A DNA stretch of 26,955 bases, taken from NCBI GenBank assembly GCA_013375475.1, contig JABXKD010000050.1:1-26955 (forward strand), written 5' to 3'. Shown here one piece after another: positions 445 to 24,777 of this stretch; position 1 is the stretch's first letter, and every line of letters starts with the position of its first letter. A program made the translations under genes and the position numbers. This stretch comes from Promethearchaeota archaeon (GTDB lineage: Archaea; Asgardarchaeota; Lokiarchaeia; Sigyniarchaeales; SOKP01). Under the pieces are notes generated by a model. That model was given only the letters and a program-made list of their open reading frames with translations, made no database searches and had not been told where the DNA came from.

Positions 445-640
445 GTCATATTTCAAGTACGTTTTTTTTTAAATATTATAAATAAGAATTTGTTTTTATA
501 ATAATGCTAAACCAATCTACACTTTTTATAAAACTTAATATTTTTAAAATTATTTAAAACTAAAATAAAAAAAGGTTTTTATAAGATTTAGGTCTATTAT
601 TTTTTAGTATTGTATTTTTAAATGTTTTAATATAAAGGTT
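445..640. promoter_or_regulatory. AT-rich divergent promoter region between GTPase and aIF1 genes
   Basis: Very AT-rich intergenic stretch with several TTTTATA/TTTAAA TATA-like boxes between head-to-head genes. Individual boxes cannot be assigned. Confidence 0.4.
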
Positions 641-653
641 GTGAAAAAAGAGT

Positions 654-983
654 ATTAAAGACGACGATATTTGTGCGATATGTAGTTTTCCAAAAGACCT
701 ATGTATATGTGATAGTTTAAGCGCAGATGAGCAACAAATTATTATTTCTAATGCCCGCCGTAAATGGGGCCGTGTTGTTACCGTTATTACATTTGAAGGA
801 GATATAGATGCGAATTTAAAAGATATTCTTACGCAAGCTAAAAAGAAATGTGCTTCCGGAGGGACTGTTAGAGGGAAAGAGATCGAACTTCAAGGGGAAC
901 ATAAATTCAAACTAAAAAAATTCCTAATTGACTTGGGATTTCCCGAGGAAAACATTCTTATTCAGGAACGGATGAGAAATTAA
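654..983 (+). CDS. sui1: Translation initiation factor aIF1 (SUI1/eIF1 homolog), apparent ATT start
   Basis: Not in ORF track. Frame reads (I)KDDDICAICSFPKDLCICDSLSADEQQIIISNARRKWGRVVTVITFEG...LKDILTQAKKKCASGGTVRGKEIELQGEHKFKLKKFLIDLGF...*. Archaeal aIF1 Zn knuckle (CxxC..CxC) and SUI1 motifs KCASGGTV and IELQGEH. In-frame TGA at 642-644, so ATT at 654 is the best start. Confidence 0.92.
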   Translation: MKDDDICAICSFPKDLCICDSLSADEQQIIISNARRKWGRVVTVITFEGDIDANLKDILTQAKKKCASGGTVRGKEIELQGEHKFKLKKFLIDLGFPEENILIQERMRN

Positions 984-1070: not shown

Positions 1071-1508
1071 ATGAGCACAATATTCTATAAGGTAATTTTT
1101 AAAGGATTAATAGGAGATTCATCTGAATCGTATTCACTAACCTTTAAAAACATCATTCAAGAGAAACTTATTCATGTACCCTCTCAATTTTTTTCTTCCC
1201 TAAAATTACTAAGTCAAAAACAAACAAATGTAATAAATTTTCAAAACATTAGGGAAGTTGTAAAAATTGGAGATTCCTACACTAATTACGATTTTAATTA
1301 TTATATAGTTGTCCTTTACACAAGTTTATCAGATGGAAAAAAGGAAGGATTTTTGGTCGGAAATTTAAAAAAACTTGGCGATATTCTTATTGGAATTTGG
1401 CCTTTTAATCAAGAGGATACTTCTCTATCTTCAAAAGACTTTTTAAAACAACTAAACCTTTTAACTGAAGGAAGTAAATTTAAAGATATAAGTGTGATTT
1501 ATTCTTAA
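1071..1508 (+). CDS. Hypothetical protein
   Basis: 145-aa ORF with ATG start filling the gap; no recognised motif. Confidence 0.65.
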   Translation: MSTIFYKVIFKGLIGDSSESYSLTFKNIIQEKLIHVPSQFFSSLKLLSQKQTNVINFQNIREVVKIGDSYTNYDFNYYIVVLYTSLSDGKKEGFLVGNLKKLGDILIGIWPFNQEDTSLSSKDFLKQLNLLTEGSKFKDISVIYS

Positions 1509-7607: not shown

Positions 7608-8579
7608 TCATTTTTCTTTAAAATTGATTGTCTTTTGATTGTTTATTGTTAAGTTAAATGTTTTTATATCCGGTTTATATGTGTTAAAGATTTCATTCGA
7701 TTCATTTTCTTTTCCTTTTTTACAAAACGCATATACAGAGCGACCTAATTGATTCATACTTGCTCCAATAATATCTGATTTGAATAAATCGTTTAATAAC
7801 TCTTTAGTTTTATTTAAATCTAAAATTTCCATAATATTAGTATCTTCTACGAATTGGAATGAGATTTTAATGAAATTTTCGTAATGTGGTTCTAATAATA
7901 ATTTGTCTAAAGCAAGTTTCCCAGCTTCTTTTATTTTTGAACTTAGTTTCTCATCGGATAAGATTGATTTGGTTTGTATCGTTCCGAAAGTTCCACAAAG
8001 GACTAAAATATCATTCGGACTTTGTAAACGCTCGTAGTTACAAGGATAACCCGGCTCTTTTAAAACGCACAAACCTCTTCCTAATTGACCACAAACAGTC
8101 CCCAACCCCGTTTTATTAACAACTTCTGCAATATGAGCTATCCTTCCGCTTTCAAAATTGGTCAAGCCTAGGTTAAGAAGTTTATTCAGTCCAAAAATCG
8201 TTCCTAATGCTCCTGAACCGCTTGCACCATACCCACAACCAACCGGCAAATCAAAAGTGTGTTCAATTTTTACTTTTATGGGGTATTTAATTAGATTTTT
8301 AATATAATCAAATATGAAATATGTTGTTTCTGCTTTTTTATCCAATTTATCTTCGTTAATATAAATCGTACACCGACTTTCTTCATCTCTTTCAAGCTTT
8401 TGGTAAGAAATAGCTGTTTTTCCTACTCCACTTACGTTAAATCCGGCTCCTCGAGAACCTATCTTTTGCGGATTGTCAATTGGAATACCATTTTCTTTAT
8501 CTACAATTTCAAAAAATCCCGAAATACGATGGGGAACTTCAACAATTATTTTATTAGTGCTGCTTACCATATCCCGCAA
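7608..8579 (-). CDS. Pantoate kinase (GHMP kinase family)
   Basis: VPHRISGFF, GSRGAG, LPVGCGYGASGSGAL, AHIAEV...TGLG, ASMNQLG. Confidence 0.85.
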   Translation of the reverse strand: MRDMVSSTNKIIVEVPHRISGFFEIVDKENGIPIDNPQKIGSRGAGFNVSGVGKTAISYQKLERDEESRCTIYINEDKLDKKAETTYFIFDYIKNLIKYPIKVKIEHTFDLPVGCGYGASGSGALGTIFGLNKLLNLGLTNFESGRIAHIAEVVNKTGLGTVCGQLGRGLCVLKEPGYPCNYERLQSPNDILVLCGTFGTIQTKSILSDEKLSSKIKEAGKLALDKLLLEPHYENFIKISFQFVEDTNIMEILDLNKTKELLNDLFKSDIIGASMNQLGRSVYAFCKKGKENESNEIFNTYKPDIKTFNLTINNQKTINFKEK

Positions 8580-9750: not shown

Positions 9751-9910
9751 GCAGGGATAACCAAGTTGGTCAACGGTGCCGGACTTTTGTGAGAAAAATT
9801 CTCACAACACGGATTCAAGATCAATAATCAATATTTCCGTTGATTAACAGAGTTTCTGATGAGATATCCGGTGAGATAGCTCTACGTGGGTTCGAGTCCC
9901 ACTCCCTGTA
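9751..9910 (+). tRNA. tRNA-Leu(CAA) with two introns (32/33: 9785..9814; 37/38: 9820..9865)
   Basis: Acceptor GCAGGGA/TCCCTGT with discriminator A. D arm ACC..GGT, anticodon stem CCGGA/TCCGG, long variable arm GAG-ATAG-CTC, T arm GTGGG-TTCGAGT-CCCAC. CAA lies at 9816-9818 between two hairpin-containing inserts. Canonical BHB at 37/38. CCA not encoded. Confidence 0.88.
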
Positions 9911-24363: not shown

Positions 24364-24777
24364 TTATTTTTCTCTAATTTCTTCCCGTGCGCCGCAAGCG
24401 GTACATTTAAGATAATTTTTTTTACCTTCTCTTTGAATCTCTGTATCAGGTTTATTACATATCCTACATAATACATATGTTTTTGAATATTGTTCAATCA
24501 ACCTGTTCAATACTTGTTCTTTATAGATACCTTTTAGAAACAATTGTTGTCCTCTTATTTCTCCCATTGTTCCTACTTTTTTCAGAAAGACACCGATGAA
24601 ATGCTTGCGATCTCTAATTAAAGTATTAATTATCTTGTTAAAGTTTGTAATGTACGTATTTTTAGCTTCAATTCTTATTTCAACTTTTGGAATTTCGAAT
24701 CTAGACAATTTCTTCACGTTATCTGGAATCTTCTCGTAGGCTTTATCTATTAATTCGTCATAATTATTGATATCCAT
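24364..24777 (-). CDS. eif2b: Translation initiation factor 2 beta subunit
   Basis: YDELIDKAY, RFEIP, TYITNF, YVLCRICNKPDT, LKCTACGA. Confidence 0.95.
   Translation of the reverse strand: MDINNYDELIDKAYEKIPDNVKKLSRFEIPKVEIRIEAKNTYITNFNKIINTLIRDRKHFIGVFLKKVGTMGEIRGQQLFLKGIYKEQVLNRLIEQYSKTYVLCRICNKPDTEIQREGKKNYLKCTACGAREEIREK

Follow-up and report, generated by a model that had tools for sequence, protein, structure and literature searches.

The window analyzed here, that is, the whole 26,955-nucleotide (nt) stretch of contig JABXKD010000050.1 from a Promethearchaeota archaeon, carries the gene for archaeal translation initiation factor 1 (aIF1), a SUI1-domain protein, on its forward strand. 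The open frame occupies positions 645 to 983, between a TGA at 642 to 644 and a TAA at 981 to 983, and its stop-to-stop product has 112 residues; read from position 654, the coding sequence (654 to 983) comprises 109 codons plus the TAA. Profile searches identified the product as a SUI1 protein (PF01253, 55.8 bits against a cut-off of 25.5) and as aIF1 (NCBIfam NF002096, 104.4 bits against a cut-off of 98), with the SUI1 domain at 729 to 944 (product residues 29 to 100, matching profile positions 2 to 77 of 77). The closest solved relative is the Methanocaldococcus jannaschii aIF1 (4MO0; E value, 3.4e-20), to which the product aligns from residue 3 on, residue 3 of 4MO0 corresponding to residue 8 of the stop-to-stop product. 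The alignment includes the archaeal N-terminal zinc knuckle, C-x2-C ... C-x-C, which can be read directly at 672 to 710 (cysteine codons at 672, 681, 702, and 708) and whose cysteine columns are invariant in a wider aIF1 alignment. The gene is present in a single copy in the 3.9-Mb genome, and no full-length relative examined has a disrupted frame. The contigs of close relatives carry titles of Promethearchaeota or Promethearchaeia metagenome-assembled genomes, i.e., Loki-type Asgard archaea. Thus, positions 654 to 983 hold the sole aIF1 gene of a Loki-type Asgard archaeon. By homology, the encoded factor would be expected to bind the 30S subunit and to reject initiation complexes on non-AUG codons, activities that excerpts of the literature describe for the aIF1 of Saccharolobus (Sulfolobus) solfataricus and Pyrococcus abyssi (PMC6237735, PMC4705826).

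The frame has no canonical start codon at its 5′ end. The sequence at 639 to 660 is TTG TGA AAA AAG AGT ATT AAA GAC, and past the TGA the aIF1 frame reads AAA AAG AGT ATT AAA GAC GAC GAT ATT TGT, the last codon being the first cysteine of the knuckle. The stop-to-stop frame reaches its earliest ATG, GTG, or TTG only at codon 96 of 112, far beyond the zinc knuckle, and the open reading frame (ORF) listing of the window contains no canonical-start ORF of at least 30 amino acids (aa) in this frame. An initial annotation had proposed that the gene starts at the ATT at 654 to 656. On re-reading, all of its observations on the sequence were correct: the TTG-TGA, the ATT at 654, the lack of a canonical start, an out-of-frame mini-ORF overlapping the ATT, and a run of six A at 644 to 649. 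A start at ATT 654 yields a protein beginning MKDDDICAIC..., which has two more N-terminal residues than the solved M. jannaschii aIF1. NCBI gene models of orthologs already begin at this ATT (MKDDDIC...), under the name "stress response translation initiation inhibitor YciH." Public models differ, in that those of JGI and ENA for aIF1 orthologs are only 70 to 90 aa long and miss the zinc knuckle, and one ortholog model reads the TGA as tryptophan (MWKKSIK...).

To examine the conservation of the putative start, loci from related genomes (n = 30) and from a scan of species-representative genomes (n = 78), two partly overlapping sets, were pooled; 105 loci had the CxxC motif. Each was scored for a Shine-Dalgarno (SD)-like block followed by exactly 9 nt, ATT or ATC, and then AAA/AAG/AGY GA. 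The block, the 9-nt spacing, and ATT or ATC were found in 89/105 loci (ATT in 86 and ATC in 3), and none of the 89 has a canonical start at the position of ATT 654. Among the 16 nonpattern loci, two (L071 and L108) conform by eye but have a variant flank, one (L103) is truncated where its contig stops, and the remaining 13 come from other families or from another phylum. The orthologs therefore have a conserved ATT at this site rather than the uniform ATG that the initial annotation had named as a refutation of its proposal.

The 89 pattern loci represent 63 distinct 72-nt regions, or 66 distinct 107-nt 5′ regions, and the latter show an abrupt change in the mode of variation at position 654. 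The block at 638 to 644 has a single nonconsensus letter over seven columns. The purine-rich spacer at 645 to 653 has 150 nonconsensus letters over nine columns with no codon periodicity (68/29/53 by codon position); it occurs in 29 versions in the 89 loci, always of the same length, and contains extra in-frame stops in 32/89. The ATT at 654 to 656 has 0/0/3 nonconsensus letters, and the codons from 657 to 713 have 68/22/232, the excess lying at third positions. Free, noncoding variation thus gives way to three-base periodicity at 654, which argues that coding starts there. In some species, in-frame stops lie only one or two codons upstream, and ATT 654 is the first near-cognate codon after them; in sister families, the same position holds TTG, GTG, ATG, or ATA. 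Taken together, these comparisons make it very probable that aIF1 is translated from AUU 654 behind an SD-like sequence, an assessment that applies to AUU initiation and not to any feedback through it.

The same alignment bears on other ways in which the frame might be opened. Homopolymer runs are error-prone, and if the six A at 644 to 649 were really five, a GTG at 641 would fall in frame, giving an ordinary gene with a product beginning MKKSIKDDD. However, 66 distinct orthologous 5′ regions from independent assemblies have the same frame relation, which is also unchanged in the many species that replace the run with AACAAG, AAAAGG, ATAAAA, AGAAAG, TAAGAG, or other sequences, and a DNA contig from an independent sample (run X2, covering window positions 478 to 730) has no indel at 644 to 649. 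With no five-A allele in the relatives or in the independent contig, a sequencing or assembly error has practically no likelihood. A start at TTG 639 with read-through or recoding of the UGA at 642 to 644, as selenocysteine or another residue, is about equally far-fetched. In its favor, an in-frame NTG precedes the TGA in genus g1 (TTG TGA) and genus g5 (GTG AGA TGA and GTG AGT TGA), and the MWKKSIK model mentioned above implies such decoding. On the other side, TAA or TAG follows directly after the TGA in 32/89 loci, with up to three successive stops (e.g., TGA TAA GAG AGT ATT; TGA TAA TAG AGC ATT; ...TAG CCT ATT), TGA is the terminator of 400/2,832 long ORFs in the genome, and no Rfam match lies near the gene (400 to 1200). 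The tandem in-frame stops therefore exclude read-through from TTG 639, as well as an immediate +1 shift after GTG 641. As a candidate for recoding, which is expected to combine sense codons after the UGA with a recoding signal, the site was rejected, since relatives have tandem stops there.

Translation might instead begin at GTG 641 and reach the aIF1 frame through a programmed +1 frameshift, or through termination at UAA 656 to 658 and reinitiation at the overlapping AUU. The out-of-frame mini-ORF from this GTG (GTG AAA AAA GAG TAT TAA, 641 to 658), which can be read directly and overlaps the ATT, has five codons followed by TAA in 83 of the 89 loci and by TAG in one more, is cut short in 2, and continues for at least 14 codons in the 3 ATC loci; the five-codon form with a stop overlapping the ATT is thus found in 84/89. 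At the equivalent out-of-frame position, ATG, TTG, and GTG alternate in genera g5 and g1. Nevertheless, a +1 shift immediately past the GTG runs into TAA in 28/89 loci, the A run is interrupted in many species and is not conserved, and the mini-ORF is absent from genus g22 and from a second aIF1 paralog, which in its place has an in-frame GTG inside the SD sequence. The nearest AGG is only 2 to 3 nt upstream of GTG 641, outside the SD range of the genome. The stop of the mini-ORF is itself a by-product, because an ATT followed by A-A/G automatically forms one. Initiation at GTG 641 is accordingly very unlikely, and a prfB- or antizyme-type programmed +1 frameshift was rejected as a candidate, given the +1 stops in 28/89, the unconserved A run, and a mini-ORF end that varies in 5/89. 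The in-frame TTG-TGA "start-stop" (639 to 644), likewise read directly, lies inside the SD-like block and is invariant because the block is invariant. Both elements that the initial annotation had pointed out are hence present, and both appear mostly to be by-products of the SD-like block and of ATT-A.

A start at the second ATT (669), immediately before the first cysteine, is highly improbable. It too is an ATH codon (ATT, ATA, or ATC), and one NCBI model of a relative begins at this point (MCAICSF). Against it, ATT 669 lies 24 nt from the SD-like block, and the corresponding isoleucine is internal in archaea that have an upstream ATG start. The codons at 657 to 668 vary almost only at third positions, with no stops or length changes, and are therefore coding.

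The putative ribosome binding site and promoter of AUU 654 were then delimited. The SD-like block, AGGTTGTGA (636 to 644), agrees at 7/9 positions with AGGAGGTGA, the complement of the genome's own archaeal 16S 3′ end (...GGATCACCTCCT). Upstream of the first ATG of 2,832 long ORFs, an excess of GTGA spans −13 to −8, with 27 occurrences at −13 and a peak of 64 at −10 over a background of about 3 to 5; the GTGA of aIF1, at −13, is at the long edge of this range. Farther upstream, an AT-rich box, TATTTTTT (598 to 605), is a candidate TATA box of the aIF1 promoter; in most members of the family, the spacing between TATTTTTTA and the SD-like block is constant. The box sits 24 to 31 nt upstream of a nearly invariant A at 629, which differs in 1/66 distinct sequences, versus 13 to 21 for the neighboring columns. 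The box and A629 together suggest a transcript start near 629, a prediction that is tentative. RNA-library contigs cover 632 to 1172, with one (run X20) ending at 632, and none covers 1 to 600; such contigs prove no transcript end, strand, or level, and the end at 632 is only a weak hint. No conserved RNA structure was detected in the leader, where the consensus fold of 26 sequences reached −2.4 kcal/mol with one weak hairpin within the coding part, and a single-sequence fold had a z-score of −1.4. Between 400 and 1200, no Rfam family was found, the only match being a subthreshold snoRNA-like one at 965 to 1047 (E value, 0.3), and a sigma-70 and terminator scan, which does not apply to archaeal promoters, returned nothing above shuffled sequences.

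Several of these observations weigh against straightforward initiation at AUU 654. The SD-like block of aIF1 has two internal mismatches and a 9-nt spacer, compared with the usual 5 to 7. The mini-ORF from GTG 641 is co-conserved with the ATT in 84/89 loci and may have an added coupling role. If the transcript began downstream of 644, the SD-like block would lie outside the mRNA and would need another role, e.g., as an operator. Finally, the support for AUU 654 comes from sequence comparison. The comparison nonetheless supports the proposed AUU start strongly, through the 89/105 loci and the boundary at 654.

Non-AUG starts of aIF1 extend well beyond the pattern loci. Within the family, genera g13, g15 to g17, and g19 to g22 have a GTGA-like motif followed by 8 to 9 nt and ATT, and genus g14 has ATA CCT, preceded in 4/5 loci by an in-frame GTG. 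The second aIF1 paralog, about 55% identical and present in some genomes of genera g1 and g12, has a perfect (G)GAGGTGA followed by 8 nt and ATT or ATA (L204 to L209, from relatives G005, G042, G055, G127, G007, and G140); the window's own genome has one copy only. In other families of the class, the start is ATA in two loci each of f5 and f7, TTG in three loci of f6, and ATG in two loci of f4, while f2 has TTG in six, ATA in three, ATG in two, and GTG in one. Across the class, the predicted aIF1 start is thus ATT, ATA, TTG, or GTG and seldom ATG, most genera having a non-AUG codon. As a control, aIF2-beta was scored in the same class, and it begins at ATG in 45/45 scored loci (5 of the 50 were short fragments without an alignment). 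In this genome, aIF2-beta and both aIF1A genes begin at ATG, aIF2-beta being encoded in the window itself (24364 to 24777, reverse strand).

To compare the start with that of other archaea, the best 80 of 591 matches to one zinc-knuckle pattern were analyzed, a sample heavy in Bathyarchaeia. The start beside the knuckle is ATG in 68, GTG in 10, and CTG in 2; these counts place L289 and L320 as ATG, the GTG being a later codon, whereas the automatic tally had given 66/12/2. The 12 non-ATG starts among these 80 comprise five GTG and one CTG in Thor-labeled contigs, two GTG in Heimdall-labeled contigs, one locus labeled "Promethearchaeota," and three that are unlabeled. All Odin-, Jord-, Bathyarchaeia-, Thermoplasmatota-, methanogen-, and other-labeled contigs in the sample have ATG. 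Two Thor-type loci (L293 and L298) have CTG in place of the GTG of sister Thor-labeled loci, and neither has another canonical start ahead of the knuckle. The comparison points to selection against a canonical start in aIF1 over a wide span of Asgard lineages.

ATH codons appear to serve as starts elsewhere in the genome as well. At least 15 further long ORFs have an ATH codon 4 to 9 nt after GTGA or GGTGA and no canonical start for 30 to 150 codons. In five of the ATH-start ORFs, Pfam domains begin 1 to 15 residues from the ATH: Metallophos_2 (profile position 2 at residue 2), AFOR_N (position 2 at residue 9), CoA_trans (position 4 at residue 9), Rpp14/Pop5 (position 1 at residue 8), and Acyl_transf_3 (position 2 at residue 15). 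In a test restricted to the 438 ORFs lacking an early canonical start, ATT (4 + 4) and ATA (4 + 2) peak 6 to 7 nt after GTGA, over about 0.7 per offset, and AAA, GAA, AAT, and TTA show no peak at this distance in the same ORFs. An initial SD-anchored codon table could not show ATH enrichment, because its background is dominated by the isoleucine codons that closely follow true starts. Within the genus, orthologs of the metallophosphoesterase (27 loci) have ATT in 7, TTG in 6, and ATG in 14; those of Pop5 (26 loci) have ATA in 7, ATC in 4, GTC in 5, GTG in 4, and ATG in 6; those of the CoA-transferase (23 loci) have ATH in 19 and ATG in 4; and those of a pterin-binding enzyme (26 loci) have ATT in 25, with 1 unclear. 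These alternations indicate that this lineage genuinely uses ATT as a start codon, which is readily exchanged in some genes and maintained in others, and initiation at near-cognate AUH codons appears to be habitual across the genome.

Initiation at AUU 654 could proceed as follows. A leadered mRNA, with its predicted start near A629, would pair AGGUUGUGA (636 to 644) with the 3′ end of 16S rRNA; the pairing would set the P site of the 30S subunit about 9 nt downstream, where the initiator Met-tRNA would read AUU with a third-position mismatch. The initiation region would be suboptimal in three respects, all kept across the family: the start is not AUG, the SD sequence has two mismatches, and the spacer falls at the upper limit of the genome's range. 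In the available parts of one study, the S. solfataricus 30S complex binds both AUG and AUU mRNA without aIF1 but only AUG mRNA with it (PMC4705826), and a second source, also seen in excerpt, states that aIF1 destabilizes complexes on non-AUG mRNA (PMC6237735). Because the factor destabilizes initiation complexes on non-AUG codons, a rising level of aIF1 would be expected to reduce initiation at its own AUU, i.e., to exert negative feedback.

Two explanations of the conserved weak start can be weighed on this evidence. That aIF1 limits its own synthesis through its AUU is a serious possibility, to which we would assign somewhat less than an even chance. The initiation site of this fidelity factor has the suboptimal character associated with autoregulation of the infC and eIF1 type (an ATT start, an SD match of 7/9, and a 9-nt spacer), and the weak start is kept over the family and the class, set beside ATG in 45/45 aIF2-beta loci and in 68/80 of the best-matching aIF1 loci (of 591) from other archaea. 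The main rival is a constitutively weak start: AUU would hold aIF1 at a low, constant level, there would be no feedback, and the ribosomes of the lineage would take AUU, AUA, AUC, and perhaps ACG as ordinary start codons behind an SD sequence. We rate this alternative as close to an even chance. At least 15 other genes in this genome combine an SD sequence with ATH, so ATH starts are not unique to aIF1, which weakens any case for regarding it as special from conservation alone. The ATT of the pterin-binding gene (25/26) and the ATH of the CoA-transferase gene (19/23) are nearly as conserved within the genus, and neither product is a translation factor. Yet aIF1 keeps its non-AUG start over a much greater evolutionary distance, including the family, the class, and Thor- and Heimdall-labeled contigs; aIF2-beta remains at ATG in all 45 scored loci; and two other ATH genes switch to ATG, TTG, or GTG within the genus. 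Moreover, aIF1 is the factor reported, in the parts of that study cited here, to reject AUU (PMC4705826), which makes some dependence on its own level hard to avoid. The start-codon-stringency autoregulation put forward in the initial annotation is therefore borne out as to a weak, conserved start at aIF1; the feedback itself is still conjectural, with ATH starts in other genes as a counterweight.

Feedback through a poor start site is textbook knowledge for the fidelity-factor genes of bacteria (IF3) and eukaryotes (eIF1). In infC, the synthesis of IF3 is autoregulated through AUU (Butler et al. 1987, as cited in the consulted portion of PMC4705826). The aIF1 gene resembles infC in encoding a factor that rejects noncanonical starts, in having AUU behind an SD sequence, and in the conservation of the AUU among relatives. 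The two differ in that IF3 and aIF1 are unrelated proteins, that feedback has been shown genetically for infC and is a proposal for Asgard aIF1, and that in the lineage of aIF1 a fair number of other genes use AUU, AUA, or AUC. The eIF1 case involves a poor-context AUG through which the factor limits its own translation (Ivanov et al. 2010, as cited in excerpts of PMC6237735 and PMC3326321). Here, the likeness is that aIF1, the eIF1 homolog, is itself initiated at a suboptimal, conserved site. No known group is more closely related to eukaryotes than the Asgard archaea, and within our samples (the best 80 of 591 matches plus the class), non-AUG aIF1 starts are confined to Asgard-labeled or unlabeled contigs. 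Unlike in eIF1, the weakness of the aIF1 site lies in the codon and in the quality and spacing of the SD sequence rather than in a Kozak-type context, and initiation would be guided by the SD sequence rather than by scanning. Near-cognate starts are also known in bacterial genes for other proteins, such as Escherichia coli pcnB, which has an AUU start. In Streptomyces sigR, a GTC start is repressed by IF3, according to the accessible part of PMC5472188. Such a start ties output to the level of a fidelity factor, and the other ATH-started genes found here could act in the same way; these systems are, however, bacterial, and the regulated gene is not that of the factor itself.

Full-text literature searches, in the portions of articles they returned, yielded no description of a non-AUG start or of feedback for an archaeal aIF1, and reviews, as far as the retrieved passages go, list AUG, GUG, and UUG alone as archaeal start codons (among PMC6237735, PMC12993045, PMC7531240, and PMC4705826). 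The earlier statement that no description of such a case was known in Asgard archaea agrees with the literature found but must be qualified, since NCBI models already start at the ATT. The present analysis adds the coding-boundary test, the aIF2-beta control, and the contrast across archaea, and it identifies ATH starts as a genome-wide habit of the lineage. An archaeal feedback case, if true, would close a gap, combining a eukaryote-type factor with a bacterial-type signal (SD sequence and AUU) in the closest known relatives of eukaryotes. The feedback reading predicts that leaders with AUU and AUG respond differently to titration of aIF1. A broader proposal, which we consider speculative and on balance doubtful, is that the aIF1 of Loki, Thor, and Heimdall archaea, with a near-cognate start (AUU, AUA, UUG, GUG, or CUG) where other archaea have AUG, forms a self-limiting loop; that poor-site feedback in the eIF1 family predates eukaryotes; and that the aIF1 level sets a "stringency regulon" of genes initiated at AUU, AUA, or AUC, and perhaps ACG, in Loki-type genomes. 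For annotation, gene callers restricted to ATG, GTG, and TTG miss or truncate aIF1 and likely the N termini of other Asgard genes too, and the start codon sets used for Asgard genomes should take in ATT, ATA, and ATC.

Further observations concern the repertoire of start codons in this genome. Examples of ATH-start ORFs are C31:3978-5552(−), C33:44834-46669(+), C273:8992-9501(+), C111:66851-67711(+), C222:57476-57805(−), C214:2229-4058(+), and C221:13924-15198(+). An ACG directly after an in-frame stop, 6 to 8 nt past GAGGTG or AGGTG(A), is found on C11 (+) near 8204, on C281 (+) near 1924, in an ORF of C111 (−) at 93207 (reverse-strand coordinates), and in the SMC gene C212:31603-35088(−), where an ATG is offset from the frame by one base (ATGA ACG); judging from these four ORFs, ACG may be an additional start codon. 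Five Pop5 orthologs of genus g1 (L130, L134, L136, L137, and L139) have GTC at the start position, 6 to 7 nt after GGGTGA, and in three of these five species the interval from the upstream stop to the GTC is free of ATH and canonical codons. An initiator tRNA gene was not found in the genome by aragorn with or without introns, by an anticodon-loop motif, or among 36 RF00005 matches, which does not imply its absence. Aragorn misses most tRNAs of the genome. One RF00005 match in the window (9751 to 9910, forward strand) extends over 160 bases, implying one or more long introns. Contig C263 (16,925 bases) carries a bacterial-type 16S rRNA and bacterial tRNAs and is a contaminant of the bin, for which the contamination is 6.4%.

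The genes around aIF1 are in keeping with a Loki-type Asgard archaeon: a divergent Ras-family GTPase lies upstream, and a 145-aa ORF follows downstream, succeeded by genes for a PfkB kinase and for an RPA-like OB-fold protein. The 145-aa ORF (1071 to 1508, forward strand) has no Pfam match, lies directly 3′ of aIF1, and is syntenic in relatives. The RNA-library contigs extend from aIF1 into this ORF, as far as 1172.

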